Assembly (NCBI GenBank): GCA_037140715.1
Contig: JBAXDX010000001.1
Span: 8,000 to 71,999 of the forward strand
Source: Ignavibacteria bacterium
GTDB lineage: Bacteria > Bacteroidota > Ignavibacteria > Ignavibacteriales > SURF-24
Direction: 5' to 3'
Length of the DNA: 64,000 nt
The notes beneath the pieces are model-generated. The model searched no databases. It saw only the letters and a list, made by a program, of their open reading frames with translations, and had not been told where the DNA came from. How positions within the stretch are numbered: the first letter of the stretch is position 1; each line of letters opens with the position of its first letter. Shown here piece by piece: positions 1,027 to 60,355 of the stretch. Position numbers and translations under genes: made by a program.

Positions 1027-1722
1027 CTAGGAAATAACCGGAGGAACGGGCGGGTCAGTTGGTTTTTCATGCCTTATTCCGAGGTTTTTAATGGTTTTTA
1101 TTGCCTGATACTCTTTGTACATTGCTTCATTTTCTGTTCTGAAGGGGATCATGCTTTTGTCAAGACTTTTTCTGATAAACATTCCAGTTGTGCTGACTTT
1201 CTCAAAAATTTCTTTTCGCATTGCTTTTTTCTCACCCTGGCTGAGTTCGCGTTTGCCGAGAGCGGATTTATAGAGTCCAAGCAGATCTTCGATTTCTGTA
1301 AGTTTTGGCAGGTCATATTCGTAAACAACAAGGCCGGCAAGGTTATCTTTTGCGGCATCAATAATACTTTTTGAGCTGTTGTAGAGATTCATTTCCGTCA
1401 TTTCCTGGAAAACGGATAAAGATTTATCGCAAAGAGCTTTTAGTTCCTCGCCTGCGATATCAACGCCAACTCCGTAAAGAGCACCGGACAAAGGGAACAT
1501 TACATCAATAAGATTTTTTGCAGCAGCCTTTTTGGCATTAGTTTTGCCTACAACGGCTTCGTCATAATTGCTTATCATATTTTCCACGGCAATGGCTTTT
1601 TCTTTAAAGGTTGTGAAAGCTGTGAGTACGGGAGGTTTGGTGGCAATAGTTGCTGCCCATTTCTCTATAAACTCCTGCATTGCCTGGTACATTACTACTT
1701 TTCTTTGAATTGACATATCCAT
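1027..1722 (-). CDS. hypothetical helical protein
   Basis: 231-aa ORF with AAGGAG-type RBS (aaaaaggagtagtaaaaATG) upstream of the start at 1722. No family recognised. Confidence 0.6.
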   Translation of the reverse strand: MDMSIQRKVVMYQAMQEFIEKWAATIATKPPVLTAFTTFKEKAIAVENMISNYDEAVVGKTNAKKAAAKNLIDVMFPLSGALYGVGVDIAGEELKALCDKSLSVFQEMTEMNLYNSSKSIIDAAKDNLAGLVVYEYDLPKLTEIEDLLGLYKSALGKRELSQGEKKAMRKEIFEKVSTTGMFIRKSLDKSMIPFRTENEAMYKEYQAIKTIKNLGIRHEKPTDPPVPPVIS

Positions 1723-2805: not shown

Positions 2806-5556
2806 CTAATAATAATATCCTATCGTAAAATAGAAAAACACAGGTCCTCTGGCGATGCGATTCCCATGTGATTTGTCCTGTCTGAATAAGAAACTGCGTC
2901 CAACGGAAAATTCCGCTGGGCCTAAAGGAGTGTCGAGTGAAAGCGTTGCACCGGCACCGTGCCTTAGGTCGGAGAAACGAATTAGTTCGCGGTTTACCCA
3001 ACTGGAGCCTAAGTCATAACGAAGTTTTAGGTAAGCGTCAAAAAATACTTTTAAAGGGATTCTGACACGGTACTCAAGCGAGGATAAGAATATTTGTCGT
3101 CCGCGGAATTCATAGTCGCGGAGTCCAAAAAATGAATTTTGCCCGCCAAATGAAAACTGTTGGCTTAACGGCAATGTGTTATCCGCAAAACCGATGGCTA
3201 CTCTGGGGCTGAATGAATGGACTTCATTTGAAGTAGTGATATGGCTTGTATAATCAAAATATATTTTTGTATAGCCAATGTCACTGACAAAGAGATTCTG
3301 CGCTGTTTCATAATATGCCTTAACCAGAAAACCCTTGTTCGGGAATGGGTATTTGTCCTGATTATCAATGGCAGATTGAACAGCCAGAGTAAAAATGTTA
3401 TTATTTTCGATAAAATTAAAATCGCGGATATTTGTGATTTTGCTATTCTGGTATTTTCCTTCAACTATCAGGTTGCCAAATTTTTCTGCCTGCATTCCAA
3501 ATCCCAATGAAAAACCTTTGTTTATCTGCTGGTATTCGGCGACCGAAAGACGATCGAATTTACCGCCTATTACAAGCGGGTTGTCCTCGTAGGAATATAT
3601 ATTATTAATATCATAGAAAGCGCGCAGTTTATAAGTCAGGTATGTCTGAAAAATTCTATTTGCTTTATGTTCAAGAATATAAGAACCATTGCGCTCGCCT
3701 CCTGAAATAATAAGTCCAAGCTCGGTGCCAGTGCCGACTAAGTTTTCATCACGGATATCGATGTTGCCCTGGACACGGTTTTCATTGTCAATCCTGAGTC
3801 CGAAACGTACAAGGCTCGACAGTTTTTCGGATACTTTAAGCTTCAGCGTATTTACTCCACCTGAATCGGACGATGTAAGTGAAATATCATTAAACAGATT
3901 TGTGCCCCGCAGGCTAGCGAGGCAGCCGTCAACTTTTTTATACTGAAAATAGTCGCCTGAATCAATAGGAAATTCTCTTTGTATAATACTGCGCTTTGTC
4001 TTCTGATTTCCATCAATCTCAATATTTAAGATTTTGCCTTCGGAGAATTTAAGGCTAAGGAGTCCCTGCCGGTTGTCGAAGTTTAGATTTTCAATTTCAG
4101 CCAGCGAATAACCGAGTCCGCGGTAGAGTTTAAGGATATTAAGGACAGTTAGATATATTTTTTCAATATTAAAAGGATTATTGAACAGCGGGGATAGCAA
4201 TGAATCAACCTTTGCCTGTTCAAGGAAAGTTATGCCTTCAACTGAGATTGCTTTGACGTATGGATTTTTCTTAGCGATAAATCTTATATGCGTCTGCCCG
4301 CTGTTTTCAGTTGCCGTCACATAAAGGCTGTCATAATCACCTGATTTATAAATATCGTTAAGGTCGTTAAGAATTTCGTGGTTGCTTACAGAATCCTTTT
4401 GTGAGTATTTATTAATAAGCTTTTTTTCAAACAGTTCGGTGTCATATCTGGAAGTAATGTTTTTGAGGAAAAATTCTTTCTCCTTAAGCTTGTTTATCGT
4501 TGTTTCTGCAATTTTTTTTTCAATTTTAGCAAGTAAAGGCAAAGTAGTTGTATAGCCTGCTTCTATGAGAGAATCGATATTTGAGAAGTCGGTATTTTTT
4601 CTTTTCCCCAGTTTGGGACTGATAACTACGTCTGCCATGCGCAGTTGCTGTTCGCTTAAGAGTCTCATTGGTATTGAAACAATCTGGCTGGCTACATTCC
4701 ATGGAGTTGCAAGTTCCAGTTGCGAATTAAGCGGGCTTGTGGTATTGAAAGCAATAACTATATCGTTGCCCGATTCGCGCGCAAGCTGGACGGGCACATT
4801 GGCTACAAGTCCGCCGTCAACGAGAAGCAGGCTGTCAATTCTTACAGGAGAAATAAATAATGTAACGCTTGAGCTTGCTCTCATTGCCTGACTGAGCGAG
4901 CCTCTGTCAAGAACGACTGCTTCGCCTGTAACGAGATTGGTGCAGACGGCTTTAAAATCAAAACGAAGTTCGTCAAAACCCGACTTAACGTGCAATGGCG
5001 CGTTAAGCGTTAACATGTTCAAATTGTTTGAAAATCTCTGCCCGTTATTTATAGATGTAGGTAGCACGACATGAAATCCTTCAAGGCGTAGCGTAACGAG
5101 CGCTTTATCTTCTGTTATTTTTTGCTCTACGAATAATTCATTTCTGCTTGTTTCGTCTGTCGATGTAAGAAATTCATTCCACGGCATAGCGCGAACAATT
5201 GAGTCAATTTCGTTTATGCTGTATCCTGCCGAGTATAATCCGCCAATAATGCTTCCCATGCTCGTCCCCGCAATTGAGCTGATCTGAATATTCTTTTCAT
5301 CTAATGCTCTGAGCACTCCAATTTGCGCCAGACTACGGGAACCGCCGCCGCTTAGAACGAGGGCAATCGAAGGTTCTATGGTTGAAATTTTTGCAGTAAG
5401 ACCAAAGGGAAGTTTTTTCTCTTTATACTGAAGACTGATAATTTTATTCGACTGGCAACAGACTCGGGACGGGCAGGCAAACAACAGGAAAAACAAAGGT
5501 GCTATTTTTAATAGCTTAAATATATTTGCCTGAAAGACTTTGTAAATATTTTTCAT
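2806..5556 (-). CDS. patatin-like phospholipase fused to POTRA/Omp85 beta-barrel (type Vd autotransporter, PlpD-like)
   Basis: 916 aa with a signal-like N-terminus. Patatin motifs are present: GGGSRS (oxyanion), GTSMGS (GxSxG) and VDGG (catalytic Asp). The C-terminal half is beta-rich and ends in aromatic residues (FTIGYYY), like Omp85/BamA barrels. Confidence 0.85.
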   Translation of the reverse strand: MKNIYKVFQANIFKLLKIAPLFFLLFACPSRVCCQSNKIISLQYKEKKLPFGLTAKISTIEPSIALVLSGGGSRSLAQIGVLRALDEKNIQISSIAGTSMGSIIGGLYSAGYSINEIDSIVRAMPWNEFLTSTDETSRNELFVEQKITEDKALVTLRLEGFHVVLPTSINNGQRFSNNLNMLTLNAPLHVKSGFDELRFDFKAVCTNLVTGEAVVLDRGSLSQAMRASSSVTLFISPVRIDSLLLVDGGLVANVPVQLARESGNDIVIAFNTTSPLNSQLELATPWNVASQIVSIPMRLLSEQQLRMADVVISPKLGKRKNTDFSNIDSLIEAGYTTTLPLLAKIEKKIAETTINKLKEKEFFLKNITSRYDTELFEKKLINKYSQKDSVSNHEILNDLNDIYKSGDYDSLYVTATENSGQTHIRFIAKKNPYVKAISVEGITFLEQAKVDSLLSPLFNNPFNIEKIYLTVLNILKLYRGLGYSLAEIENLNFDNRQGLLSLKFSEGKILNIEIDGNQKTKRSIIQREFPIDSGDYFQYKKVDGCLASLRGTNLFNDISLTSSDSGGVNTLKLKVSEKLSSLVRFGLRIDNENRVQGNIDIRDENLVGTGTELGLIISGGERNGSYILEHKANRIFQTYLTYKLRAFYDINNIYSYEDNPLVIGGKFDRLSVAEYQQINKGFSLGFGMQAEKFGNLIVEGKYQNSKITNIRDFNFIENNNIFTLAVQSAIDNQDKYPFPNKGFLVKAYYETAQNLFVSDIGYTKIYFDYTSHITTSNEVHSFSPRVAIGFADNTLPLSQQFSFGGQNSFFGLRDYEFRGRQIFLSSLEYRVRIPLKVFFDAYLKLRYDLGSSWVNRELIRFSDLRHGAGATLSLDTPLGPAEFSVGRSFLFRQDKSHGNRIARGPVFFYFTIGYYY

Positions 5557-19097: not shown

Positions 19098-19179
19098 TGC
19101 TCCTTCAGGGCGAATATATTATTGGATATCAATTAATTTGCAACACCTGCAATTTCATAAATTTTGCCCTGAAGGAGCA
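19098..19179. repeat. 14-bp inverted repeat with 54-nt loop
   Basis: TGCTCCTTCAGGGC (19098-19111) pairs with GCCCTGAAGGAGCA (19166-19179). It lies between the convergent rlpA and clpB genes. Confidence 0.6.
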
Positions 19180-19190
19180 AATATAAAAGC

Positions 19191-19210
19191 ACAGGGTTGC
19201 AATGCCCTGT
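19191..19210 (-). terminator. probable clpB terminator hairpin
   Basis: On the minus strand, ACAGGGCATTGCAACCCTGT is followed by GCTTTTAT, 17 nt after the clpB stop. Confidence 0.45.
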
Positions 19211-19226
19211 AAAAATGATATCCCCC

Positions 19227-21863
19227 TCATAATCCAAAGCCCTGCATGGAAGGAATAAAAATAAATTCCAGTTTCCCTTTATCTCCGAGCGTTACCTTTA
19301 TTACAGTTCCATCAGTCTGGTTATCTCTAAGGAGAATCTGCGAGAGAGGATTTATCAGATAACTCTGTATAGTGCGCTTTAACGGTCTGGCTCCATAGGT
19401 TATGTTATAGCCTATTTCCGCCAGCCAGTCTTTAGCTTCGTTATCTATTTCAATCTTCAGATTTTTTGACTTAAGCAATCCGGTTACATGTTCGAGCTGA
19501 ATGTCCACAATCTCTCTAATCTCCGACTTGAGTAATGGCTTAAATAGTACTATCTCATCAACCCTGTTCAGGAATTCAGGGCGTATAGTTTTCCTCAGCA
19601 ATTCCGCAAGCTGTACCCGGAGGTTATCAAGAACGAATGGAAGCTCCTCTTCTGTTGTATTCTCCAGCTTATCCTGTATAATGTGCGAACCAAGGTTGGA
19701 TGTCATTATAATTATAGTATTTTTGAAATTTACAGTTCTGCCCTGATTGTCTGTAAGGCGGCCATCATCAAGCACCTGAAGCAAAATATTAAAGATGTCC
19801 GAATGAGCCTTTTCGATTTCATCCAGCAATACCACAGAATAGGGACGGCGTCTTACGGCTTCGGTCAACTGTCCGCCCTCTTCATAGCCCACATAACCCG
19901 GAGGCGCTCCGATAAGACGTGAGACGGAGAACTTTTCCATATACTCGCTCATGTCAATTCTGACCATTGCATGCTCATCATCGAAAAGAAAGTCGGCGAG
20001 GGCGCGTGCAAGTTCCGTTTTACCTACGCCCGTTGTACCGAGAAAGATAAAAGAACCGACAGGCTTATTAACGTCCTGAAGTCCGGTACGGCTTCTGCGG
20101 ATTGCATTTGACACGGCTGAGACAGCCTCATTCTGTCCGATTATTCTACGGTGAAGTTCCTCTTCCATTCTAAGAAGTTTGCTTCGTTCGCTCTCAAGCA
20201 TTCTGCTGACCGGAATGCCTGTCCATTTGCCCACTACTTCAGCGATATCCTCGGCATCGACTTCCTCTTTGAGCATTCTGTGCTGTTTCTGAATTTCTGC
20301 AAGTCCGAGTGATTCCTGCTTAAGTTTTTTCTCCAGCGAAGCTATTGTACCATAACGCAGTTCAGCGACCCTGCCAAGATCACCAGTACGCTCATACTGT
20401 TCCGACTGAAGTCTGGCAGTTTCGATATCGCTTTTCATTTTCCGAATGATCTGGATTTTATTTTTCTCGAGATGCCAGTGAATTTTAAGTTCCTTACGCT
20501 CATCGCTAAGACCGCGCAACTCACGGCTGAGGTCTTCAAGTCTTTTAGAATTATCATGGTCACGTTCGAGGGCAACCTTCTCAATTTCGAGCTGTTTAAT
20601 TTTTCTTTCCACCGCATCAAGTTCCTCGGGCATCGAGTCAATTTCAATTCTGAGTTTTGAAGCCGCTTCATCGATCAGGTCAATTGCCTTATCAGGCAGG
20701 AACCTGTCGGCGATATATCTGGCAGAAAGCTGAACAGCAGCAACAATAGCGGAGTCAGTAATACGCACGCCGTGGTGGACTTCATATCTTTCCTTGAGAC
20801 CGCGCAATATTGAGACAGCGTCTTCTTCGCCTGGTTCACCAACGAGCACAGGCTGGAAGCGGCGTTCAAGGGCGGCATCTTTCTCGATATACTTTTTATA
20901 TTCGTTTAATGTTGTCGCACCGATTGCATGCAGTTCGCCCCTTGCGAGGGCAGGCTTTAAGATATTTGCCGCATCCATTGAGCCTTGCGCGGCTCCGGCC
21001 CCAACCAGAGTGTGAAGTTCATCGATAAACAATATTATTTCGCCATTTGAATCCTGCACCTCTTTTATAACAGCTTTTAGTCTTTCCTCAAACTGTCCAC
21101 GGAACTGCGCACCGGCAACGAGTGCGCCTAAATCAAGGGCTATAATTTTCTTTGTCTTTAAGTTTTCGGGCACATCTCCGCTTATTATTCTGTGGGCAAT
21201 GCCTTCGGCAATGGCTGTTTTGCCAACTCCGGGTTCGCCTATTAATACAGGATTATTTTTCGTGCGGCGGGAGAGTACCTGGAGGACACGCCTGATTTCC
21301 TCATCACGACCAATGACGGGATCAAGCTTTCCTGTACGGGTAAGTTCATTTAAGTCACGCCCGTATTTTTTTAGTGACTGGTAAGTATCCTCCTGGTTCT
21401 GTGAAGTTACGCGCTGACTGCCACGAATATCCTTAAGGGCTGTAAGGATGGAATCTCTTGTAACACCATTATCGCGTATTAACTGCCCTGCCCTGCCGTC
21501 ATTAGCCACCATTGCAAGAAGCAGGTGCTCAGTTGATACAAATTCGTCCTTAAGCTTCTGTGCCTCATCGGTTGCCGCATCCAGTAAGCGGCCGGTTGTC
21601 TGCGACAGCTGCTGATTGCCGGCTCCGGCACCTGAGACCTTTGGCAGACGCTCGAGAAGTTCGTTTACTTTAAGTTTTATATGGTTAAGGTTTACCTCTG
21701 TTTTCCTCAGGAAGGAAACAGCAATACTATTATCATCCTGAATCATCGCGGCAAACAAATGTTCCGGTTCGACAATCTGGTTATTATAGTTTTGCGCAAT
21801 ATCCATTGCATTTTGAATAATTTCCTGCGCTTTTACTGTAAGTTTGTTTAAATTAAAAGCCAT
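19227..21863 (-). CDS. clpB: ATP-dependent chaperone ClpB
   Basis: Two AAA+ modules ([13 protein letters not shown]; [13 protein letters not shown]) separated by a long coiled-coil M-domain. ATG at 21863 is preceded by AGGTGAG; the ORF track extends to GTG at 21872. Confidence 0.96.
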
Positions 21864-23753: not shown

Positions 23754-24854
23754 ATGAATTATTATGAAAAAATTAGAGAATTGACAAGAAACGTTCCAAC
23801 AACATTAGTGGACTTTAATTTACGTAGAGAACCGGCAAGAACGCCAACTCAGGCGTCTTCAAATTTTATAACAAACAAAGAACAAGGGGACTGGGCAGAA
23901 TATCTTATCTTCCGCGCAATTAATGAAACATCAAAGAATTTTGTAGCTGTAAAATATGGTAAATCAGATAATCTTGTCGCCGGCGAAGAAGGATTTGATA
24001 CTTTTTATCAATCTTTTCAAGAAGAACTTGATTCCATAGGTAAACGACCAGATTTATTAATATTTAAGAAAACTGATTTTGATGATAAGCTGGGAGTCAA
24101 CATTAGCAATATTCCATATCACCAAATTACAGAGTATGTTAAAAAAGCTATTGCCGGAATTGAGGTCAGGTCAAGCTCTTTTTTAATTGACCAGTACGAA
24201 GCTGAAATGCAATCGCGAACAGAACGGTTTACGAGAATTGCTTTAGAGCTCAGAGACAACATATTATCTGAATATCATGATATCCTTAATGTTTCACCAC
24301 GACAGAAATACATTTCCGTTTTAGAAGGTATTTCTAACGAAACTCTTAGTATTACGGATTTTAAAGTCCCTGGGTGGAAATCTTCGGACAGGCTTGTTCA
24401 ACTAAATAATCAGTTTAAGAACCTAAAAAAAGCAATTAAGGAAATTCAAAAGAGGGATTATCTTTCCATAACTCCCAAAGTAGAAGACATCAAAGTTGTT
24501 TATAAATGGATTGAAACTTTCAATGTACCTCATTTTTATTTCCAGGTTTTTTTTGATAAAGTCTATGGCATTTCCTTTGAGCATATTCTTGAAATAATAT
24601 CAGATACTGACAATGACGGCGTAATATTTTCAGTAGAAACAGATACAAAAAATCAAAATAAAACGACCATAAAAATAAATTCAAAAACCGGGGTTCAAAT
24701 AGCTTATAAGGTTGACGAACCAGACCATAAGAGTGTAAGAAAAGAAATAGAGCGGGGCAGATTGCTTTTTTATGTAAGCTTTAATGGAGGAACCGCTTAT
24801 TTAGATGTAGATAACCTAAAAAATATTTTAACACTAAGCGAAGAAGAATTTTAA
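23754..24854 (+). CDS. putative type II restriction endonuclease (PD-(D/E)xK-like)
   Basis: 366 aa. It contains ..KRPDLLIF.. followed about 35 aa later by ..GIEVRSS.., a PD...ExK/R-like nuclease core. Its stop overlaps the ATG of the adjacent methyltransferase by 1 nt (TAATG). Confidence 0.55.
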
Positions 24855-26452
24855 TGGCGTATATAAATGTAAATAATATTTCCGATGAAGTTGAACGAGA
24901 ATATTCGGCTTCCACGCCTGTTGAACATAGAAAAAAATACGCTCAGTTTTTTACCCCGCCGATTATTGCTGATCTGATGGCGACATGGATTATCGGAAAT
25001 AAGAAATTGGAAGTTGTTCTGGAGCCGGCTTTTGGGCTTGGCATTTTTTCGAGAACTCTACTTAATAAAAAGTCCGGTATAATAATTAACGGGTTTGAAG
25101 TTGACAAGAAAATCTATCAAAAATCATTAGACTTATATAAAAATGAAAAGAATATTTCTATTCAGTTCAAAGATTATATGTATAATGATTGGGAAAATAA
25201 ATACGATGGCATTATGTGTAATCCTCCATACTTCAAATTCCACGACTATGATAACAAGAATATTCTTAATGAGATAGAAGAAAAAACATCTTATAAACTC
25301 AACGGGTTTACAAATTTATATGCTCTTTTTCTTCTAAAGTCTATTTACCAGCTAAATGAGAACGGCAGAGCGGCTTATATTATTCCCTCAGAACTTTTGA
25401 ATTCTGACTATGGTAAAAAAGTAAAAAAATATTTAGTAGAAACTAAAACGCTAAGACATGTAATCATAATAGATTTCGAAGAAAACGTTTTTGATGGCGC
25501 ATTAACAACCGCATCTATACTCTTATTCGCAAATGATGATGAAGCTGCCAGCGTTCAATTTCATAATATTAAAAATGTCACCGCTCTTCACCCAATAAAA
25601 AAAATAATAGATGAATATCCGGACAATAAAACAAATTTATGTTCTATAAAAATTGAAGAGCTTAAACCAGCAATTAAGTGGCGGGCTTATTATCAGGAAC
25701 AAAATTATAAAAAATATAAACACTTCGTGCCATTTGGAACTTATGGAAAAGTAGTAAGAGGAATAGCAACCGGCGCAAATGAATATTTTACCTTTAATCC
25801 ATCGAAGGCAAAACAGTTCGGTATAAATCAGAAGTATTTATTGCCCTGTATATGTAAGTCTGTCGATATTAAGGGTTCTTTTTTTACAGAAATAGAATTT
25901 GAACAATTACAGAAAAATAATAAACACGCGTTACTTCTTAATGCTATCAACCCGATAGATGACTCTGTAAGGAAGTATATTTCAATAGGAGAAAAAGACG
26001 GGATAGATAAAAAGTTCCTGACTTCTCATAGAAATCCCTGGTATGCTTTAGAGAATAGACTGCCTGCGCCTATCCTGGTATCTGTTTTTAATAGAAACGG
26101 ATTGCGGTTTATTAGAAATGAAGCAGGTATCTCAAATCTTACAACCTTTCACTGTATGTATATAAACAAATACTTCATTCATAAAACAGACTTGCTCTTT
26201 GCTTATCTGCTTACCGATATTTCAAAAGAAATATTCGGAGATAACCGCAGAGAATATGGCAATGGTCTTCAAAAATATGAGCCGAATGATATAAATGGAG
26301 CAAAAATATTGGACTTAGAATTGATTGACTCCAAAATAGAAAAAGTAATACTGCAACTATTCAATAGTTATAGGGAATCAGTTCTAAACCGGCAGCCAAA
26401 TGATAATTATATCAAAGAAATAGAGACTCATCTTTTGAAAATCTTCTGCTAA
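24854..26452 (+). CDS. gamma-class N6-adenine DNA methyltransferase (TaqI/Eco57I-like)
   Basis: 532 aa with the order QFFTPP (motif X), LEPAFGLG (motif I) and CNPPYF (motif IV NPPY), then a long C-terminal target-recognition region. Confidence 0.9.
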   Translation: MAYINVNNISDEVEREYSASTPVEHRKKYAQFFTPPIIADLMATWIIGNKKLEVVLEPAFGLGIFSRTLLNKKSGIIINGFEVDKKIYQKSLDLYKNEKNISIQFKDYMYNDWENKYDGIMCNPPYFKFHDYDNKNILNEIEEKTSYKLNGFTNLYALFLLKSIYQLNENGRAAYIIPSELLNSDYGKKVKKYLVETKTLRHVIIIDFEENVFDGALTTASILLFANDDEAASVQFHNIKNVTALHPIKKIIDEYPDNKTNLCSIKIEELKPAIKWRAYYQEQNYKKYKHFVPFGTYGKVVRGIATGANEYFTFNPSKAKQFGINQKYLLPCICKSVDIKGSFFTEIEFEQLQKNNKHALLLNAINPIDDSVRKYISIGEKDGIDKKFLTSHRNPWYALENRLPAPILVSVFNRNGLRFIRNEAGISNLTTFHCMYINKYFIHKTDLLFAYLLTDISKEIFGDNRREYGNGLQKYEPNDINGAKILDLELIDSKIEKVILQLFNSYRESVLNRQPNDNYIKEIETHLLKIFC

Positions 26453-26666
26453 GAAACTCATCGTTTCGCTATATCCAAATCATACTCAGGTTTGTAAATA
26501 TTTTTGTATAGCTGAGGAAAACAAACATCAGATGAATATGTTTTTTTTGCTCCAGCAGAGATAAGAGCGCTGCCCTCCTTGCCTATATTAGTGAGACAAA
26601 AAATACAGATAAAATAAGACTGAGGGTAAAGGAGAGAATAAAGTGATAAGTCATAGTGTAAATACC

Positions 26667-26720
26667 GAAACATCTGAAACGGAAGGATCCCGAAGGGCGG
26701 GTGGAGTTTCAGATGTTTCA
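26667..26720. repeat. perfect 14-bp inverted repeat, 26-nt GC-rich loop
   Basis: GAAACATCTGAAAC (26667-26680) pairs with GTTTCAGATGTTTC (26707-26720). Confidence 0.7.
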
Positions 26721-26922
26721 TCGCAAAAAAAAGCAGTCCCGGATTCAGAGGTAAAAGTACCGGTAAGATGCCCCAGGTATATAGAGAACTTTAAGCAGGA
26801 AGTCCTGAAACATGTCTGTGAATTACGAGGGGGTTATAGAAACACAACTAATTTTATTCATATGATTTACTTTGTGGCGGGTAAATTAAAGTATGATTAC
26901 CCACTATAAACAACATAGACCC

Positions 26923-26966
26923 AAAAATAATTGTCGTCAACCGGTAATTCTAAATGTCGCTAATCA
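26923..26966 (+). repeat. right copy of 44-bp direct repeat (inner pair)
   Basis: Matches 23069-23112 at 40/44 positions. It lies 12 nt beyond the stop of the macrodomain gene. Confidence 0.85.
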
Positions 26967-26977
26967 AATTGTAAAAG

Positions 26978-28021
26978 CTAATAATTGTATAAGTAATTTT
27001 GGAATTCTTTTAATCGCGCATAAGTAACCTTAATATATTCAGGCTTCATTATGTTTCTTTTTCTTTCATTCCATTCATATACTTTTGTTACCGCAGCTTC
27101 GTAATTGTCCAATAATGAAGGGTCTTCATTAATTACGAAATCAACTGTTGACAGCAATTCCATGCCAAAAGGAAATTCAAACCCTTCGATTAATGAATAA
27201 ACCTTTTCTAATCTGTCTTTTTGTTCATCAGAGCAATTTTCATTTGTAAATAAATCAACAACAGACAGCATTTCTTTTTTAAGAGTGATACAATCAAAAG
27301 GTTTTGCATCCTTAAATTTCATTCCGTCAAGATAAGTCCCGTCCATATCGCTTAATACATGAACTAATTTACCGGCATAGGGACCATAAAGATTTCTTTG
27401 ATAATCCAGTCGAAGATTTTCGCCAAATCTTTGAAGAAAATAGACTAATTTTTGAGCTTCAAGCAAAGTAAGGTCTGTCCGATAACGGTTTAGAATCATA
27501 AGAACTAATGCTCTGACCTTAGTCAGTTTGGGAGGTCTCGCATTTATCAGAATATTATTATAAGCACTTTCTGAAGGCTCGTATATTATTACATCAAGGT
27601 CTTCAATACCAGACATATTATTTAGAATTATCTGCTTCACTTCGTCCCAGTTTAACCCTCCGTTACCACATCCTAAAGGCGGAATGGCAACAGACTTTAT
27701 TGAGTAATTTTTAATTACTTCTTTAAGATTAACAAGCCCGGTTTCAATATAATCAATTTTAGACGGGTTCCTCCAATGTTTCTTGGTGGGAAAATTGATT
27801 ATATATCGTGGTTTAGTAATCTGTGTGGTTTCTGTTACAAACATTTTACCGATGTCAAGCTTATTGGTTTTAGCGGCATTTTCATAAAGTTTAAAGTTAT
27901 AAGGATACATCTTCTTAAATTGAATAGCTATTCCCTTGCCCATAACCCCCATAGTATTTATGGTATTTACGATTGCATCGGTTTCGGACTCTAATATATT
28001 TCCTTTCACAAATCGTATCAT
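26978..28021 (-). CDS. darG: macrodomain protein, DarG-like antitoxin (ADP-ribosyl-DNA glycohydrolase family)
   Basis: The N-terminal macrodomain (MIRFVKGNILESETDAIVNTINTMGVMGKGIAIQFK...YIINFPTKKHWRNPSK...IPPLGCGNGGLNW) closely follows the DarG macrodomain pattern as I recall it from M. tuberculosis and Thermus. There is a ~190-aa helical C-terminal domain (..EAQKLVYFLQ..YGPY..). The ATG at 28021 overlaps the upstream stub's stop by 1 nt. Confidence 0.75.
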   Translation of the reverse strand: MIRFVKGNILESETDAIVNTINTMGVMGKGIAIQFKKMYPYNFKLYENAAKTNKLDIGKMFVTETTQITKPRYIINFPTKKHWRNPSKIDYIETGLVNLKEVIKNYSIKSVAIPPLGCGNGGLNWDEVKQIILNNMSGIEDLDVIIYEPSESAYNNILINARPPKLTKVRALVLMILNRYRTDLTLLEAQKLVYFLQRFGENLRLDYQRNLYGPYAGKLVHVLSDMDGTYLDGMKFKDAKPFDCITLKKEMLSVVDLFTNENCSDEQKDRLEKVYSLIEGFEFPFGMELLSTVDFVINEDPSLLDNYEAAVTKVYEWNERKRNIMKPEYIKVTYARLKEFQNYLYNY

Positions 28022-28269
28022 TAAAAATACCACCTTTCTTGTTTTTTGACTATTATTTTTAGTCCCGTTTTTCCTGCTTCTTTTTCAATGTAATTTAGCA
28101 TTTTATCATTATAAGAAGCAATGCCCGATATAGAGTTTGCCGGGAAGCAGGAGAATTTAAGAGTTTCCAGTAGCTGCCCGTAAAACCCCGGTACCTGTTT
28201 TTGTCCGGAGAGCCGCACAGAGCAAAGAAACAGGACTGCCATGAACGGCAGAGACGGGCAGTAATTCAC
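28021..28269 (-). pseudogene. darT: 5'-truncated darT-like (DUF4433) toxin remnant
   Basis: The 82-codon ORF ends ..LLETLKFSCFPANSISGIASYND...KKQERWYF*. This resembles the DarT C-terminus (..AEFLV..P...I..I.V...WYY). The frame is closed by a stop at 28321-28323 inside the right direct repeat, so at most about 100 codons exist versus about 200-230 for DarT. The N-terminal NAD-binding half is missing. Confidence 0.5.
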
Positions 28270-29611: not shown

Positions 29612-29974
29612 AAGATTTCTTTTCCCGTTGCAAAGTCAAATTATTTAATTCCCCCCCAAGCACCGTACTGATTCTCAGCTTATGTGGTAAGTTAAAATAC
29701 AGTCTAATTATCTTTGAGGTGCTGACGCAACACAAATCTTTGTATATCTACATTATGCAGATCGTCTTCTACTGAAATTTTGATGCTGTCAAGTTTTGTT
29801 GTAGGTATCTCCTCAACTATTCTTTTATACTTATCGAATTTAGCCCACTTGGGAAAATAAAATGCTGTATATTTTACCTGAATGCCAGACTTTGAATAAT
29901 TACAATGCATATTTGTAAGTCTGCCCAATTTTTATGACCGTATCGGGAATGCTTGTAATTGATATTCCCATACC

Positions 29975-30165
29975 GAATGCTACTGACTTTTGAAAAATAT
30001 AAAATTTAGCGAAATTTTCAGGTTATCTGTATTCTGAAATTAGCAGTCACCTGCAAAGCGAATAAGAAAAAACCGAGAATAGAGACTATAACTACAATTG
30101 CGATTAAATCTATAATTGCCAAAATTGAATAAATCTCAAAGTTCTATCAAAAGTCAGTAGCATTC
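29975..30165. mobile_element. 191-bp element with perfect 19-bp terminal inverted repeats and 11-bp flanking direct repeat (MITE-like; alternative: inverton)
   Basis: GAATGCTACTGACTTTTGA (29975-29993) pairs with TCAAAAGTCAGTAGCATTC (30147-30165). ATTCCCATACC flanks both ends (29964-29974 and 30166-30176). No ORF inside. Confidence 0.65.
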
Positions 30166-31967
30166 ATTCCCATACCTGCAATTGAGTTGATATTCCAGCT
30201 GACTGAAACAGTATCCATATCATTATAGACCAGAGCTGTTACTTTGTTCTGTCCGAGGTCATACTTTAGCGAATTATATGTAAAGGATTTAGATTTTGCC
30301 TCTGAAACAATACTGCCATTTACAGCCCACGCGAAGTTCACGTCTTCATCATAATAGCCTTTGGCGTCAATCCTAAATGTCTGGCTCTTTCCATACTGCA
30401 GGTCGAGGTCACGGCTATTAAACGACATCCGCGCGCCAAGACGGGTATCATTTATAACTGTAAAAGGCGCCCACTGCGTTATTTCAGGAGGATAATTGTT
30501 CTTAAGAAAATGGTCGAGCACATTCTTAGTAATGATTGATACTTTTGAATCATTTTCATAAAGTCCCCAGACCCACCTGATAGTAGCAGCATTAAAAACA
30601 AATCCCGCACCTGTTTTTTTATATTTAAATATTCCCATCGTTGCCCAATCCTTGACTAAGTCTTTAGATTCATGATTAGCAGGGCTGATACCGAGTATAG
30701 AATAATTCAGCGGAGATTGATCTGTCCCAGTCGGAACTGGTCTGCCATCAGTATATTTAAATAGAGTGGCATCACATTCATAACCTACGATTGATGAATC
30801 CTGCCTGTAGCCGAGTGTGTCTCCGTCTTTCAGTCCAGAGTTCTTGAATACCCAGTTCTGCGTGTTATGCAGTATATAGCCGCCATAACCCTTTTTCCAT
30901 ATCAGGCATCCTATGTCTTGATTTTGTCCATGATAATTTATCTGTCCGCCGTGTTCATAACTAACACCAATAAACGGATTTTCCCGCTGGGTTCTATACC
31001 ATTCGATAGTATTCAGACTTGGATTGGGAAAACCGAAGAGATCTTCCCAGTCGCGATGTTTATAGCAGACAAAAGTTCTATAGTTATTCTCAAACCGTAT
31101 CTGCCACCAGCAGGTATTGCCGCTCATGCACATCCAGTTACCGCCAGCATTTACAAAGTTTGTTACATTCTCTCTCATACCATGGCTCCAGTATTCATCA
31201 TGACCACAGGTAAGCAACACTTTATGAGTATTCAGGTAAGCGGAATCATTGTCCAGTTCGAGACTGCCTATTACGTCCACATCATCGCCATAACCGTATT
31301 TCTCCAGCCAGCGTATCAGTTTCGCATCATAAGCATAGAAACTTCCTCGGTTAACACCAGTATGCACGTTCAGATTCATCGGTCTGTTGAATGAGAGCTT
31401 TACCGAATAATTAACTCCGTTATTTCCACCACTGCTATAGGCTGGATAAGAGCTTTTGCCGCCAAACATGTTATACGCCTGGTAGGTGGCAGTCGCACAA
31501 GCCACAAGCACTTTGCTTCTTTTAGTAACATCCTTTTCCTTGACAAAGAAAAGAACAGGATTGATAGTGTCACTTAAGGTAGGAAATTCGGCTATGTAGG
31601 CTCCGGCTCTCCAGTTGTCGGGAATCTTGAAATTCTCTACCGTAACAGGCCAGTTACAGCCTTTAACATAAACCTCATCGTTTTCCTTTACCTCCATTAT
31701 TCCCCCCTTAAGATTTGGTATATCCTGAACCCATTCTTTGGTCTTTCCATATCTGTATATCTTAAGAGTAAAAGGGTTCTGAAATGTAGAGATGTAAAAA
31801 CTTATGGTTTCTCCCTGATACGCGCTGTGTACAGACGAATAGCCGCCTTCCTGAAGCCCAACGCCAAAATTCGTTATTTTTAACGGCTGAGCACAGGATT
31901 TGATTAAGATAATCAGGATAACCAGCAAAAAACAAATTAACAAAATATTCCTGTAGTGACTATTCAT
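30147..31967 (-). CDS. lipoprotein, N,N-dimethylformamidase-large-subunit-like (DUF6605-like) domain
   Basis: 606 aa with a lipobox (LIKSC). It carries motifs ..ACATATYQAYNMFGG.. and ..CGHDEYWSHGMR...AGGNWMCMSGNTCWWQIRF.., recalled from that family. The last 6 codons and the stop lie inside the element's right inverted repeat. Confidence 0.55.
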   Translation of the reverse strand: MNSHYRNILLICFLLVILIILIKSCAQPLKITNFGVGLQEGGYSSVHSAYQGETISFYISTFQNPFTLKIYRYGKTKEWVQDIPNLKGGIMEVKENDEVYVKGCNWPVTVENFKIPDNWRAGAYIAEFPTLSDTINPVLFFVKEKDVTKRSKVLVACATATYQAYNMFGGKSSYPAYSSGGNNGVNYSVKLSFNRPMNLNVHTGVNRGSFYAYDAKLIRWLEKYGYGDDVDVIGSLELDNDSAYLNTHKVLLTCGHDEYWSHGMRENVTNFVNAGGNWMCMSGNTCWWQIRFENNYRTFVCYKHRDWEDLFGFPNPSLNTIEWYRTQRENPFIGVSYEHGGQINYHGQNQDIGCLIWKKGYGGYILHNTQNWVFKNSGLKDGDTLGYRQDSSIVGYECDATLFKYTDGRPVPTGTDQSPLNYSILGISPANHESKDLVKDWATMGIFKYKKTGAGFVFNAATIRWVWGLYENDSKVSIITKNVLDHFLKNNYPPEITQWAPFTVINDTRLGARMSFNSRDLDLQYGKSQTFRIDAKGYYDEDVNFAWAVNGSIVSEAKSKSFTYNSLKYDLGQNKVTALVYNDMDTVSVSWNINSIAGMGMNATDF

Positions 31968-34200: not shown

Positions 34201-35358
34201 TCATTTCAGCTTTTTGTAAATATTCCCGGGCGAGAATAGCAACGAGTTTTTCTTTGCTTCTTCCTTCAGATGGCGAAGCTTTTCTTTGTTTGTAATAATC
34301 TCGTTCAGTATATTTCTTAATTCTCTGGCACCCGTGTATGCGACAGTTGAACTCTTAAGCTCTTCGAATATATCATAGCCGGACACAACCAACCCTGGCT
34401 TCGCGTAATGAATAAGCGTAAATGTAAAGCCGGTTTCTTTTGTCTTGCCGTATATGCTCAGTTTATCAATTACTACTTTCATATTGCCAAGTACAATATC
34501 CGTTGAGGCAAAGTGTTCGTCATATTCTTCAAAGGGAATAAACTTTTCAGAGAAATATTTTATCTTTATCCCTTTAGATATAAGCCTGTCGGCTTCAGCC
34601 TTAATGGACAGTCCGCCTTCATATTCGGCTATGCTGCCTAAGAGTAAAAGTTCAATTTTATCTTTAAAGAAATCTATATCGCTCTCAAGCGCCGTAAAGA
34701 CGGTAGTATAATCGCGCCTCATAGTTGAAAGCTTGCCGGGAATGCTTACTTTAAGAATTGTGTTGGCTCCGGACTTATCTGCAAGGTTCTTATTATAAAC
34801 AGAAAATGGAATTACCTCTGTCTTCCCGGCTGGAACGATGTAGCTTAACTTCGGTCTGAGGTTTTCGCTCAGTACTACGAACTTTCCATTTGACTGAAGC
34901 TGTTTGTTAAGTATTTTTTTTCGCCAGTAAGGATAGATTAAATATTTTTTTAAATTATATATGAGGCTTAAGTTTGAAAAGCTGAACAAAAAGCAGTTAA
35001 TATTATAGCCAAAACTGAAATTAGACCATTCATCAATATTGTGAATGAGCAACACTACCTGAGAATTAAATTTGGCAGAGTAAAACTCTTTGAAATATTT
35101 TTCAAGCGTAATGATGTAAAGTTTATCTATCTGAAAACTCCCAATCCTTTTGAAGAAATGACTAAGAGACTCAACTTCATCTTTCGTTACCACATGAACA
35201 TTTTTCTTATCCTTTACAACAGGAGTAATTATTCCAGAACCATAGCGGTGGGTAAAAATAAATATTTCATTTTTACAGTCTGAGGCAAAGACTTCCATTA
35301 CCGATTCAACAAGAGTAAAGTGTCCAAGGGGCATAACTTCAATTATTCCGACTTTCAT
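34201..35358 (-). CDS. hypothetical protein of the glycan locus (possible GT-B-like)
   Basis: The ATG at 35358 (MKVGIIEV...) overlaps the upstream gene's stop by 1 nt. The ORF track extends to 35466, which would overlap that gene by 109 nt. No family recognised. Confidence 0.55.
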   Translation of the reverse strand: MKVGIIEVMPLGHFTLVESVMEVFASDCKNEIFIFTHRYGSGIITPVVKDKKNVHVVTKDEVESLSHFFKRIGSFQIDKLYIITLEKYFKEFYSAKFNSQVVLLIHNIDEWSNFSFGYNINCFLFSFSNLSLIYNLKKYLIYPYWRKKILNKQLQSNGKFVVLSENLRPKLSYIVPAGKTEVIPFSVYNKNLADKSGANTILKVSIPGKLSTMRRDYTTVFTALESDIDFFKDKIELLLLGSIAEYEGGLSIKAEADRLISKGIKIKYFSEKFIPFEEYDEHFASTDIVLGNMKVVIDKLSIYGKTKETGFTFTLIHYAKPGLVVSGYDIFEELKSSTVAYTGARELRNILNEIITNKEKLRHLKEEAKKNSLLFSPGNIYKKLK

Positions 35359-36158
35359 TATGCGAGATCTTTCCTGAGGTATATCGTATCCCATTCCTTC
35401 AAGCGACCTTTGTCCTTGAGCGAAGGAAATATATCGTAAAGGATAAAGCCATTCTGCCTCATGCACTCATCAAGCTGATAATACTTTGGAGAGCCTTCAT
35501 AGTTTTCATGGTTATTAAGTTCAAGCACTACAACGGCTGTGCGCCTAAGGGTATCAGCAGCTCCTTTTAATACTTCAAGCTCGTAGCCCTGCACGTCTAT
35601 TTTAAGTATGCTTATTTTTTTATCGTGCGGAATTTCCGAGTCAAGCGTTGTTATTTCAATTTCTTCTTCCCCTTGCTTTATCAGCGTATCGGAGAAAGCC
35701 TTACTGTTTTGCTCGGTCTTAAGCGAAAGTATCGAAGAAGACGTAATACGGTTAGCCATATTAATAACTGTCCTGCCTATACTATTACCGACAGCTTTTG
35801 GAACAATGGTAATATTATTATAGGTTGATACTGCGTTTGTTAATTTACTGCGGGTTTCCAAAATAGGTTCAAATACCCAGATATGACTATTTGGATTTTT
35901 TTTTGCAAATAATATCGCAGTGTTGCCTATTGCTCCCCCGACATCGAGTATGCCGGAATCATTCAAGCCCAAGGACTTTGCAAGCACGATTGCCTTTTCA
36001 ACGTGAACATAGCACTGGAAATATTCACTCTCGATATAATCAATTACTTCATCATTAAGCGAATGGGCAAAGAGATACTTAAGCACATCTTTATTTTTCC
36101 TCGCCATTGAAGAGAGTATATTGATAAATAATTTTATTACTGTGTTTGTTAGTTTCAT
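35358..36158 (-). CDS. FkbM-family methyltransferase
   Basis: 266 aa with LDVGGAIGNT (motif I) and the ILKIDVQGYELEVLKGA signature. Confidence 0.8.
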   Translation of the reverse strand: MKLTNTVIKLFINILSSMARKNKDVLKYLFAHSLNDEVIDYIESEYFQCYVHVEKAIVLAKSLGLNDSGILDVGGAIGNTAILFAKKNPNSHIWVFEPILETRSKLTNAVSTYNNITIVPKAVGNSIGRTVINMANRITSSSILSLKTEQNSKAFSDTLIKQGEEEIEITTLDSEIPHDKKISILKIDVQGYELEVLKGAADTLRRTAVVVLELNNHENYEGSPKYYQLDECMRQNGFILYDIFPSLKDKGRLKEWDTIYLRKDLA

Positions 36159-46973: not shown

Positions 46974-47216
46974 CAATGCTGTCAGGTTAAGGTTCAAAAC
47001 TTTTATTGCGCCCTTTCAGGGCTTTTTGGGTTGTCGGGGAATTTATTTTTCACAGGGCGATTGCCCTGTGCTATTATATTTCGCCCTTTCAGGGCTGAAT
47101 CAGCCCTGAAAGGGCGAAATATATCAGCGATGGGCAACCAACCGCCCATCGAACAAAACAAAATAAAATCCATAAGCCCTACAGGGGCGCAATATGGTGT
47201 TAACCTGACAGCATTG
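46974..47216. mobile_element. 243-bp MITE-like palindromic element at the metH stop codon
   Basis: The 17-bp inverted repeats CAATGCTGTCAGGTTAA (46974-46990) and TTAACCTGACAGCATTG (47200-47216) are perfect. TCAGTCCTG flanks both sides (46965-46973 and 47218-47226). The interior is a nest of hairpins, e.g. TCGCCCTTTCAGGGCTGAATCAGCCCTGAAAGGGCGA. Confidence 0.7.
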
Positions 47217-53310: not shown

Positions 53311-53400
53311 CAATGCTGTCAGGTTTCAGGGTTGTGGCGAAGAGGTGTCCATTTCCATATAGCGCTACCCCTGTGCTGTTATATTTTACCCCTTCATCGC
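53311..53400. repeat. partial (left-half) relative of the 46974-47216 element
   Basis: It shares CAATGCTGTCAGGTT, GGGTTGT.G and CCTGTGCT.TTATATTT blocks in the same order. No right inverted repeat was found. Confidence 0.5.
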
Positions 53401-57481: not shown

Positions 57482-58900
57482 ATGTTAATAACTATGAATA
57501 TTACTGAAATTTCAAGCAACAATTCCAAAATGATTTGGAAAGAATGCTTAAAAATCATAAAAGAAAATGTCCCTTACATGACCTATAACACATGGTTTCT
57601 TCCTATAAAGCCAATCCTTCTGAACGGACAGTCGCTTAAAATACAGGTTCCGAACAATTTCTTTATCGAGTGGATTGACGGACACTATAATACTTTAATA
57701 AACAAGACTATCCACCAGGTTATTGGACTGGAAGCTGAACTTGTCTATATAATATCAGATGAAAATGATATACCTGAAATTGAACTTAGACGTGAAGAAC
57801 CCAGCCGCCATGAACCTGTTCAGACTGCAGTCATCGAAAAAGAGATTAAAAACGATAAACCTGAATTTGAAACATATCTTAATCAAAAATATACATTTGA
57901 TAACTTCATTAAAGGTGATGGCAACCAGCTTGCAAGAGCCGCCGCATTTGCTATTAGTGAAAATCCAGGTGAAACTTCTTTTAATCCCCTTTTTATTTAT
58001 GGTGGCGTAGGACTTGGCAAGACTCATCTTATTCAGGCAATCGGTAATAAAATTTTGAGTAATTATCCTCATAAAAGAGTTATCTATCTGTCGAGTGATA
58101 TATTTACTGTTGAATTTGTTGAAGCTGTACAAGCTAACAAGGTAAATGAGTTTTCAAATTTTTACAAAAAAATGGACGCGCTTATAATAGATGATATTCA
58201 ATTCCTTATAAATAAGGAAAAAACTCAGGACTTGTTCTTTAATATTTTTAATATACTTCACCAGTCCGGCAAACAAATCATTCTTTCAAGCGACAAACCC
58301 CCAAAAGACTTAAAAGGTCTAAATGAACGCCTTATATCCAGATTTCAATGGGGACTGTCAGCGGATATTCAGCCACCTGATTATGAAACGCGTTTTGCCA
58401 TATTAAAGAAAAAGAGCGAAAACTATGGAATTTATTTATCTCCTGATATATTGGAATATATAGCTATAAATATTACATCCAACATCAGGGAACTGGAAGG
58501 CTGTCTGATAAAGCTTCTGGCGAATACATCGCTTAGTTCCAAGGAAATTAATCTGGAAATGGCTAAAAAGACAGTTAAAGAGATAGCCACAGACAGAAAG
58601 GTAAATATTTCAATAGAATATATTACTAAAGTTGTCTGTGAGTGCATGAATGTAGAAGAAAACAAGGTCCGCGAAAAAAACAGAAAACAGGAAGTAGTAC
58701 TTGCACGGCAAATAGCAATGTACTTATCTAAAAAACTAACCAAGTCTTCGCTGAAAACCATTGGTCTTCACTTTGGCGGAAGGGATCATTCTACCGTTAT
58801 ACATGCATGTAATAATATTGAAGTTCTGTCAAATGAAGATATTGCGCTAAAAGACGTACTCGAATCTATCAGAAATAAGATTGAACTTAGCGTTGCTTAG
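57482..58900 (+). CDS. dnaA: chromosomal replication initiator DnaA
   Basis: 472 aa with the AAA+ Walker A GGVGLGKTHL, ..IDDIQF.., and the C-terminal DNA-binding domain ..GGRDHSTVIHA.. The start may be the Met at 57494. Confidence 0.97.
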   Translation: MLITMNITEISSNNSKMIWKECLKIIKENVPYMTYNTWFLPIKPILLNGQSLKIQVPNNFFIEWIDGHYNTLINKTIHQVIGLEAELVYIISDENDIPEIELRREEPSRHEPVQTAVIEKEIKNDKPEFETYLNQKYTFDNFIKGDGNQLARAAAFAISENPGETSFNPLFIYGGVGLGKTHLIQAIGNKILSNYPHKRVIYLSSDIFTVEFVEAVQANKVNEFSNFYKKMDALIIDDIQFLINKEKTQDLFFNIFNILHQSGKQIILSSDKPPKDLKGLNERLISRFQWGLSADIQPPDYETRFAILKKKSENYGIYLSPDILEYIAINITSNIRELEGCLIKLLANTSLSSKEINLEMAKKTVKEIATDRKVNISIEYITKVVCECMNVEENKVREKNRKQEVVLARQIAMYLSKKLTKSSLKTIGLHFGGRDHSTVIHACNNIEVLSNEDIALKDVLESIRNKIELSVA

Positions 58901-58901
58901 A

Positions 58902-59141
58902 TGTGGATAACGTACATGGTAAGTGTTGGCTAATTGTTGTGTATGTACGTTTTCAGCTGACTATGTTGATATCATACTATATGGAAAGACTTATCCACAT
59001 TTAATAAAATCCAAAAGTTTGCAATACAGTTTATATTTGTGGCATTTTAAGTTATCAACATATTCACATCTTTATTAGATTTATTAAAAATTTTTAAAAA
59101 TAAATTAATATAATATAAATGAGTGTGTGGATTGTTGATAT
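58902..59141. promoter_or_regulatory. oriC part 2: DnaA boxes and AT-rich unwinding candidate between dnaA and dnaN
   Basis: Perfect boxes TGTGGATAA (58902-58910) and TTATCCACA (58991-58999). Near-boxes lie at 58964-58972, 59052-59060, 59126-59134 and 59133-59141. About 50 nt of almost pure A/T spans 59066-59120. Confidence 0.75.
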
Positions 59142-59220
59142 TCATAAGCGACGGAACATAATTCGCGTTGTATCTATATATAATTTTTGATATTTTGGCA
59201 TATCAATTTGGAAAATTAGA

Positions 59221-60354
59221 ATGGAATTTAAGGTAAATAGCAAATTACTCGAAAAGCTACTGACAAAGATAATCCCGGCAGTCCCTTCGCGTACTACGAT
59301 GCCAATATTGGAAAATTTCCTCTTCGAACTTAATGATGGTTTACTTACCATTTATGCCACAGACTTGGAAATTGCTCTCAAATCATCAATAAATGTTGTA
59401 GCTGAAGAAAATACAAAACTTGTGGTTCCCGCACGCCTTCTTTATGAAATAGTTCGCTCGCTTCAGGAAACTACTATTCTCTTTCAGGTCTCACCAAATG
59501 GCAAGACTAATCTTAAAACAGATAATGGTGTTTATACAATAAGTTATCTTTTGCCGGAAGGATTCCCTGATATCCCATCATTTCCTGAAAACAGCGAGGA
59601 TAGAGATAATATAGGCAAAATGCTAATCGGCGGACCGGAGCTAAAAAAAGCTATCGAGCAGACATCATTTGCAATGAGTAAAGAGGATATGCGTCCTGCT
59701 ATGATGGGCCTGTTACTGGAGTTTACAGACGAGGGTCTCCGTTTTGTCTCAACCGATGGGCACAGACTTGTAAACCTGCTTAAGAAAACAGTAAACATCG
59801 GCTTTAATGACCAGTATATTCTTCCGGATCGTGCTATATCTGTACTTATGAAAATATTGGAGGAGAAGGATGTTAAAATTCTTCTCAGCAATACTTATGT
59901 TTCGTTCAGGGCGGGAGATATTGAATTTATTACAAGGCTTATTGCTCAGAAATATCCTGACTACAGAAGCGTTATTCCATTTGAAAATGAAAATAGACTT
60001 AAAATAAAACCTGCTGATTTATTTTCTACAATTAAAAGAATGCTCCTTTTTTCTCCGGCTAATTCCAGAAAAGTAAAATTTTCCATTACTCAGAATAACC
60101 TGGAAGTATCATCCGAAGATATCGATATGGGATCTTTTGCCAGGGAAAATATTTACTGTGAATATTCAGGTGAACCTATGGATATAGGGTTTAATTCAAC
60201 TTATGTTAACGATGTGATAAGCCATCTGCAGAATGAAGATGAGATTGTCTTTAAACTTCATTCGCCTACTAAGGCTGTTATTATTGAACCGGTAATAAAT
60301 AAAGACAATGAAGAACTAATGATGTTGCTCATGCCTGTGCGCTTAAATAATTGA
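59221..60354 (+). CDS. dnaN: DNA polymerase III beta sliding clamp
   Basis: 377 aa with three-domain clamp length and motifs (..ATDLEIAL.., ..STDGHRL.., ..MPVRL at the C-terminus). In dnaA-dnaN-recF order. Confidence 0.97.
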   Translation: MEFKVNSKLLEKLLTKIIPAVPSRTTMPILENFLFELNDGLLTIYATDLEIALKSSINVVAEENTKLVVPARLLYEIVRSLQETTILFQVSPNGKTNLKTDNGVYTISYLLPEGFPDIPSFPENSEDRDNIGKMLIGGPELKKAIEQTSFAMSKEDMRPAMMGLLLEFTDEGLRFVSTDGHRLVNLLKKTVNIGFNDQYILPDRAISVLMKILEEKDVKILLSNTYVSFRAGDIEFITRLIAQKYPDYRSVIPFENENRLKIKPADLFSTIKRMLLFSPANSRKVKFSITQNNLEVSSEDIDMGSFARENIYCEYSGEPMDIGFNSTYVNDVISHLQNEDEIVFKLHSPTKAVIIEPVINKDNEELMMLLMPVRLNN

Positions 60355-60355
60355 A

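Follow-up and report, generated by a model that had tools for sequence, protein, structure and literature searches.

A probable miniature inverted-repeat transposable element within the 3' part of a DMFA2_C-family gene in an Ignavibacteria bacterium

The interrupted gene and the layout of the element

The DNA that we analysed, from here on the window, is a stretch of 64,000 nucleotides from an Ignavibacteria bacterium (contig JBAXDX010000001.1 of GenBank assembly GCA_037140715.1). It holds a polysaccharide-biosynthesis cluster that encodes glycosyltransferases, methyltransferases, a flippase-like protein and a YfhO-like protein, and within this cluster lies an open reading frame (ORF) of 606 amino acids whose 3' end runs into a 191-bp element (Table 1). 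The element is delimited by two 19-bp inverted repeats, GAATGCTACTGACTTTTGA (the right arm reads TCAAAAGTCAGTAGCATTC), that enclose 153 nt, and it is flanked on both sides by the 11-bp direct repeat ATTCCCATACC. That all four repeats are perfect had been put forward, with their positions, in an earlier reading of the same DNA (the original prediction), and both the layout and the positions proved right. A perfect 11-bp repeat next to both termini of the element would arise by chance with a probability of about 4^-11, and even when up to three mismatches are allowed the 19-mer matches nowhere else in the window (0.01 expected). The G+C content (GC) of the element is 29.8% as compared to 38.4% for the window; the element folds as a long hairpin (z = -5.3) and a scan against Rfam at E<=1 yielded no match.

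We interpret the element as a non-autonomous transposable element, i.e. one of the miniature inverted-repeat transposable elements (MITEs), that truncated the gene in which it resides, and we assign this interpretation a probability of roughly 0.85. MITEs have been described as small, AT-rich elements with terminal inverted repeats and a target duplication but without coding capacity (PMC4596501). The size of the element (the MITE range being about 50-1000 bp), its AT-richness and its missing capacity to encode a transposase agree with this usual description, as do the terminal inverted repeats. The repeats, the duplication, the lack of a transposase gene, a second copy with the same boundaries and the interrupted ancestral frame are all shown by the analysis.

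The host ORF finishes inside the right repeat with ..GMGMNATDF and then TGA; the ORF listing thus agrees with the earlier claim that this repeat supplies the last six codons and the stop. The encoded protein, called a lipoprotein in the original prediction, is here assigned to the DMFA2_C family (PF20254, E 2.4e-71). Its closest homologues (P0002-P0012) have a length of 788-823 amino acids at 50-61% identity and carry, after the DMFA2_C part, an immunoglobulin (Ig)-like domain and a sorting domain of the type IX secretion system (T9SS) (PF05345, PF13860, PF18962). The homologues are T9SS cargo proteins. Deletion of the element together with one 11-mer yields an ORF that ends in ..GMGISITSIPDTVIKIGQTYKYAL and a stop, and when three of the homologues were compared by tblastn with the window edited in this way, the alignment ran unbroken over the junction (..SWNINSIAGMGISITSIPDTVIKIGQTYKYAL against ..SWNIISKDG-ALAITSIPDTLIHIGQPYKYAL). 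The colinearity with a single 11-mer implies that the element inserted in a once continuous frame and that the 11-mer was duplicated on insertion. The target-site duplication that is part of the MITE description is therefore present at the window copy, the flanks of the second copy (see below) being inverted and by themselves not decisive. That an insertion with target-site duplication rewrote the 3' end of the gene had already been proposed, and it is supported by the colinearity with the homologues, by the exact boundaries of the second copy and by the IS4-type ends together with a duplication of fitting length.

The C-terminus that is restored by removal of the element has the sequence that was originally predicted for it. 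It is not the ancestral end of the protein, as the homologues run about 190 residues further. A frameshift lies directly after ..YKYAL, 21 codons past the insertion, and homology resumes from there in another frame (Table 1). Beyond residue 711 no homology to P0002 was found with tblastn; the last ~110 residues, which contain the T9SS sorting domain, are absent, and just 92 nt (29612-29703) are left before the glycosyltransferase gene that starts at 29611. The frameshift recurs in an independent Logan unitig, and an assembly error can thus be discounted. The 'alternative C-terminus' is, as read from these alignments, a 21-codon stretch of a gene that was once some 190 codons longer. The glycan genes had been placed from 29928 downwards in the original prediction, a position that has to be corrected in view of the fact that the ORF at 29704-29928 is a remnant of the host gene.

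On this basis the element would have landed at about codon 600 of a gene of some 790 codons for a T9SS-secreted DMFA2_C-domain protein. Because its last six codons and its stop now come from the repeat, the product lacks the Ig-like and sorting domains, and the orphaned 3' part has decayed via frameshift and deletion, either after the insertion or already before it. A gene truncated by a MITE is an ordinary kind of event. It does imply that the 606-residue 'protein' annotated in this metagenome-assembled genome (MAG) represents a truncated T9SS cargo gene from which the sorting signal has been lost.

Table 1. Features of the element and of the interrupted host gene (positions in the window)
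Feature	Position	Strand	Remarks
Frameshifted remnant of host Ig-like domain, 74-aa ORF	29704..29928	-	tblastn with P0002 residues 655-711, E 5e-10; no Pfam match
Continuation of ancestral frame, ISITSIPDTVIKIGQTYKYAL then TAA, cut off by the element	29900..29963	-	aligns with AITSIPDTLIHIGQPYKYAL of P0002; also in independent Logan unitig
Left copy of target-site duplication, ATTCCCATACC	29964..29974	.	perfect direct repeat of 30166-30176; homologues align colinearly when a single copy is left
Left terminal inverted repeat, GAATGCTACTGACTTTTGA	29975..29993	+	same sequence in second copy (L008 1757-1775); fits IS4-subgroup end signature
AT-rich 153-bp interior without transposase	29994..30146	.	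holds all differences from second copy; no Rfam match
34-codon ORF, TTG start, one hydrophobic helix (MAIIDLIAIVVIVSILGFFLFALQVTANFRIQIT)	30018..30122	-	only ORF of >=25 codons wholly inside the element
Right terminal inverted repeat	30147..30165	-	gives host codons 601-606 (MNATDF) and TGA stop
Right copy of target-site duplication	30166..30176	.	encodes ..GMG of host protein
Truncated host gene, 606 aa, intact up to the insertion	30147..31967	-	PF20254; 50-61% identical to homologues of 788-823 aa with T9SS sorting domains

A second copy in the pyruvate-dehydrogenase operon

An exact scan of the JGI metagenome contigs with the 19-mer recovered contig Ga0194060_10000086, on which two matches lie in inverted orientation, 155 nt apart. 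They delimit a full-length second copy of 193 bp that is 92% identical to the window copy and has the same two 19-bp repeats. This copy is located at a locus that is unrelated to that in the window, namely within a pyruvate-dehydrogenase operon, where it occupies the spacer that separates the E2 gene from the E3 gene. In a pairwise alignment that included the flanks, the similarity between the copies extends from the outer end of one 19-bp repeat to that of the other and not a base further, so that the unit is defined independently of the window. The copies differ at 15 alignment columns (13 substitutions and one 2-nt indel), all of them interior and none within the 38 repeat bases. By our estimate the probability that all 15 differing columns miss the repeats by chance is about 0.04. 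Difference-free ends fit the pattern that would be expected under selection for recognition by a transposase.

The E2-E3 locus is also present on k141_1720606 of ERZ27300037, the ENA assembly from which the window itself derives, with one mismatch to the JGI sequence in the first 18.1 kb. Logan run SRR7053541 holds both the window locus and the E2-E3 locus, and the NCBI accessions of the two neighbouring proteins, MEI7810818.1 and MEI7811345.1, are 527 apart. Given the shared assembly, the shared run and the close protein accessions, both loci very probably belong to one Ignavibacteria MAG, which would put at least two copies of the element in one genome. The dispersal that is typical for MITEs is therewith present at its minimum, i.e. 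as two copies with the same boundaries at unrelated loci.

Two unitigs of the Logan run break inside the element, L011 at the first base of the right repeat and L005 at the first 31-mer that distinguishes both copies. A high copy number was considered as the cause and rejected, because the breaks are fully accounted for by a perfect repeat of 30 bp (k-1, at k=31), which is found at the second copy, and by the 31-mers that both copies have in common; these breaks are the de Bruijn-graph signature of a 30-bp palindrome and of two copies that co-occur in SRR7053541.

The position of the second copy also bears on the other explanation that was offered in the original prediction, namely an invertible promoter in front of glycan genes. 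In that case a recombinase would flip the 153-bp segment and thereby switch the downstream glycosyltransferase genes, in the manner known from Bacteroides capsule loci. The geometry is indeed alike: Bacteroides invertible promoters (served by Mpi or tyrosine recombinases) are segments of about 190 bp between inverted repeats of about 19 bp that adjoin polysaccharide genes, and the element, itself part of a polysaccharide-biosynthesis cluster, is located 350 bp upstream of a GT4 gene that is read from the same strand. Moreover, Bacteroides has families of invertons with repeats common to several loci. Nevertheless, the element interrupts an ancestral coding sequence, where an intergenic switch region would be expected, and it carries an 11-bp target duplication. 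Its near-identical copy is found within a housekeeping operon and is oriented oppositely with respect to transcription. No recombinase is encoded nearby, as far as the window ORFs of at least 200 amino acids and the gene tables for the contig ends are concerned, although a global invertase encoded at a distance would escape such a survey. There is also no excess of sigma-70-like promoter matches (3 versus 3.8 expected), which is weak evidence as the Ignavibacteria consensus may differ. Finally, the consensus assemblies, in which a minority of reads would be invisible, show one orientation per locus, the window copy being covered by ENA and Logan and the E2-E3 copy by JGI and ENA. We consider an inverton exceedingly improbable. 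The case calls for some caution in the identification of invertons by geometry: a 190-bp segment with 19-bp inverted repeats and glycan genes nearby mimics an inverton, and the transposon insertion is recognised because of the flanking duplication, the second copy and the alignment with homologues.

Terminal signature, small ORF and alternative origins

When the element is viewed as a MITE, its ends provide a clue to the transposase that may have moved it. According to the IS4-family review of De Palmenaer et al. 2008 (PMC2266710), members of the IS4 subgroup have ends of the form '-AATR--------WTW----' and generate direct repeats of 10-13 bp. The 19-bp repeat GAATGCTACTGACTTTTGA shows AATG at positions 2-5 and TTT at positions 14-16, in agreement with this signature, for which the background is 0.23% of the positions in the window, and the 11-bp duplication lies within the range of the subgroup. 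Whether the element carries IS4-type ends, specifically those of the IS4 subgroup, is on these sequence characteristics a matter of about even odds. Since neither an autonomous partner nor a transposase was seen, the assignment to a family has to be made wholly from the ends and the length of the duplication.

The chemistry that we infer is of the cut-and-paste type, and the transposase family is inferred likewise: a DDE transposase encoded elsewhere (none was seen) would bind both 19-bp terminal repeats, excise the element and attach its ends to target strands with cuts at a distance of 11 bp, after which gap repair would create the 11-bp direct repeat. The empty-site junctions that are predicted run from 30177.. 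to ..29963 via a single GGTATGGGAAT at the window locus, and read ..CCGATGGGCGATGCCCTGTGAAAG.. in the E2-E3 spacer. Among the related loci that were compared (L012-L016, with E3 proteins that are 85-88% identical), the E2-E3 spacers of L013-L015 are short and lack the element; they are too diverged for the exact empty target of the second copy to be recovered.

A comparison with known systems shows both likenesses and differences. Bacterial MITEs such as the Porphyromonas gingivalis groups and the Neisseria Correia elements are likewise small and AT-rich, have inverted repeats and a duplication, and are dispersed elements that remodel adjacent genes; they typically occur, however, in 10-20 copies per genome, whereas here two copies and no parent insertion sequence (IS) were found. 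Elements of the IS4 subgroup share the signature (NAATR-N8-WTW) and the direct repeat of 10-13 bp, roughly one helical turn, but have a length of 1.4-1.65 kb and encode a transposase with DDE/YREK motifs, as compared to 191 bp and none in our case. The element can at most be a deletion derivative of an IS4-type element or a mimic of its ends. MIC231 is a mobile insertion cassette, and this and other IS231-derived cassettes of the Bacillus cereus group resemble the element in that IS4-family ends surround non-transposase DNA, are mobilised in trans and give duplications of 10-12 bp. The ends of IS231, which are confined to the B. cereus group, begin with CAT, in contrast to the ends of the element, which fit the IS4 subgroup and between which the cargo ORF is doubtful. 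IS231-type targeting, i.e. insertion at GGG-N5-CCC, was considered in view of the sequence GGGCGATGCCC next to the second copy and was rejected: the ends resemble those of the IS4 subgroup and not the CAT of IS231, and the target in the window is off the consensus.

The cassettes raise the possibility that the element, too, spreads a real small gene, in which case the 34-codon ORF in the interior would encode a single-pass membrane peptide, for instance a toxin-like one. Both copies preserve the ORF with identical length, start and stop, and 6 amino-acid changes have left the peptide strongly hydrophobic; for the IS4 family, passenger genes flanked by ends of the IS231 type have been described (PMC2266710). 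The codon changes between the copies are, however, 6 non-synonymous against 1 synonymous and reveal no purifying selection, while 54% of random variants with 8 substitutions retain the 34-codon ORF, and a T-rich strand is expected to give hydrophobic ORFs. In addition, the ORF starts with TTG, is missing from the gene tables of these contigs and has no relative among 5.8e9 clustered proteins (searched with a 41-aa query) or 1.84e9 representatives (searched exhaustively with HMMER). The missing Shine-Dalgarno motif is uninformative in this respect, because such a motif precedes just 9 of the 32 long ORFs. A cassette of this kind is very unlikely, and the ORF is probably not a gene and a mere by-product of the T-rich strand.

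Several observations weigh against the interpretation as a MITE. Just two copies were found, namely the one in the window and that in the E2-E3 spacer, and these are 8% apart, so that neither can have arisen from the other very recently. The 79-kb contig holds no further copy of the element, and the exact 19-mer scan retrieved a single extra locus from the JGI metagenome collection. The same scan of 185,579 species-representative genomes returned no element and two isolated matches in unrelated taxa (an Acidobacteriaceae and a Novosphingobium MAG), about as many as chance predicts. In viral contigs neither the 19-mer nor a conserved interior 37-mer had a match. No IS-sized element with these ends came out of the species-representative genomes, the JGI metagenomes or the viral contigs, a search that was confined to the exact 19-mer, and the window ORFs of at least 200 amino acids and the gene tables for the rest of the 79-kb contig contain no transposase or recombinase domain. 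To these points the inability to go beyond ends and duplication length in the family assignment has to be added, as well as the 11-nt flanks of the second copy, which form a perfect inverted repeat (GGGCGATGCCC / GGGCATCGCCC) that is unexpected from a simple duplication. Further negative results are that the 21 kb of the second contig contain no transposase, and that the element has no counterpart among plasmid and phage records when compared by blastn. The hits of the 19-mer at L001, L002, L006 and L007 are isolated and in unrelated contexts, and were attributed to chance (by our estimate about 4 are expected in 596 Gb). In the literature that was searched no MITE is described in Ignavibacteria, and an IS4-type MITE would herewith be documented in this group.

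Read as a direct repeat, the flanks of the second copy match at 8 of 11 positions only, and in the inverted sense they give its terminal palindrome a length of 30 bp. With the form GGGC-NNN-GCCC the 11-mer constitutes a mini-hairpin, and the flanks are part of a remnant of another repeat family in this genome: the module GGGCATCGCCC...CAAAATAAAAATCCATAA recurs at L009 5405-5450 and, more diverged, inside an element at position 46974 of the window. We prefer an origin in which the second copy would first have received an ordinary 11-bp duplication of a quasi-palindromic target, after which the three central bases would have been inverted in one of the duplicates via hairpin-templated template switching, a mechanism that an account of quasipalindrome mutation gives as known (PMC7202029). 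The inverted flanks are a small curiosity with respect to the evolution of palindromic ends. There is a small chance that a MITE-sized cassette spreads a genuine gene for the 34-residue peptide or, in a more modest version, that the duplication at the second site became an inverted extension of the ends (from 19 to 30 bp). If true, a template-switched duplication at the second site would constitute a route for the growth of MITE ends.

The palindromic surroundings of the second copy also raise the possibility of an origin without transposition, in which the element would be a palindromic repeat, REP-like (i.e. like repetitive extragenic palindromic sequences) or terminator-like, that was spread by recombination or gene conversion. 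Palindromic repeat modules abound in this genome (the family of the 46974 element, described below), the second copy sits in such repeat sequence and has the 30-bp perfect palindromic extension, and the element folds as a long hairpin. Against such an origin stands the exact 11-bp direct duplication of coding sequence at the window copy, which recombination does not make. Moreover, the boundaries are the same at both loci, the ends fit a transposase-specific signature and a scan of the element for terminator-like sites yielded none. We regard a non-transposed repeat as highly improbable, and a MITE thus remains our preferred interpretation.

Genomic surroundings and a second repeat family

The window is part of k141_1822543 (78,958 bp) in ENA assembly ERZ27300037. 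Adjoining the end of the polysaccharide cluster, the region 23754-28033 encodes an AccI-type restriction endonuclease, an Eco57I-like N6 methyltransferase and a macro-domain protein, at a low GC (31-36%, profiled over 27000-28200); this region may be an inserted defence islet. For two ORFs, 34201-35466(-) in the polysaccharide cluster (421 aa) and 1027-1722(-) (231 aa), no Pfam match was obtained at E<=0.01. The genes dnaA, dnaN, recF, dciA, gyrB and gyrA lie in a row (window 57482-61474; L019 11112-16326), and the window therefore includes the likely region of the chromosomal replication origin.

The JGI and ENA sequences of the second contig (L009 and L010) diverge from position 18124 onwards, within a gene for a T9SS cargo protein. 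Both versions have the C-terminal sorting part in common and differ in the N-terminal part, one protein being rich in fn3 domains (1420 aa) and the other a CelD_N/GH9 protein (1317 aa), which suggests strain-level swapping of cargo domains.

A second repeat family, unrelated to the 191-bp element, is represented by an element of about 240 bp at 46974-47213. Its terminal repeats, CAATGCTGTCAGGTTAA, also fit the signature of the IS4 subgroup, and the resemblance that had been noted between the start of the 19-bp repeat and that of this element (CAATGCT...) is real. This full copy has TCAGTCCTG on both flanks, i.e. a 9-bp duplication, to which an extra A is added on the right side. GC-rich mini-hairpins make up the interior. 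Several degenerate, partial copies occur in the same genome, at 53311-53395 and 19170-19270 in the window and at 5280-5490 and 16799-16945 in L009, and a remnant of the family also forms the sequence into which the E2-E3 copy of the 191-bp element inserted. A near-perfect palindrome of 49 nt (TTTCGCCCTTTCAGGGCTGAATCAGCCCTGAAAGGGCGAAA and surroundings) is found at 47075-47123, within the 46974 element and directly downstream of a metH-like gene that ends at 47218.

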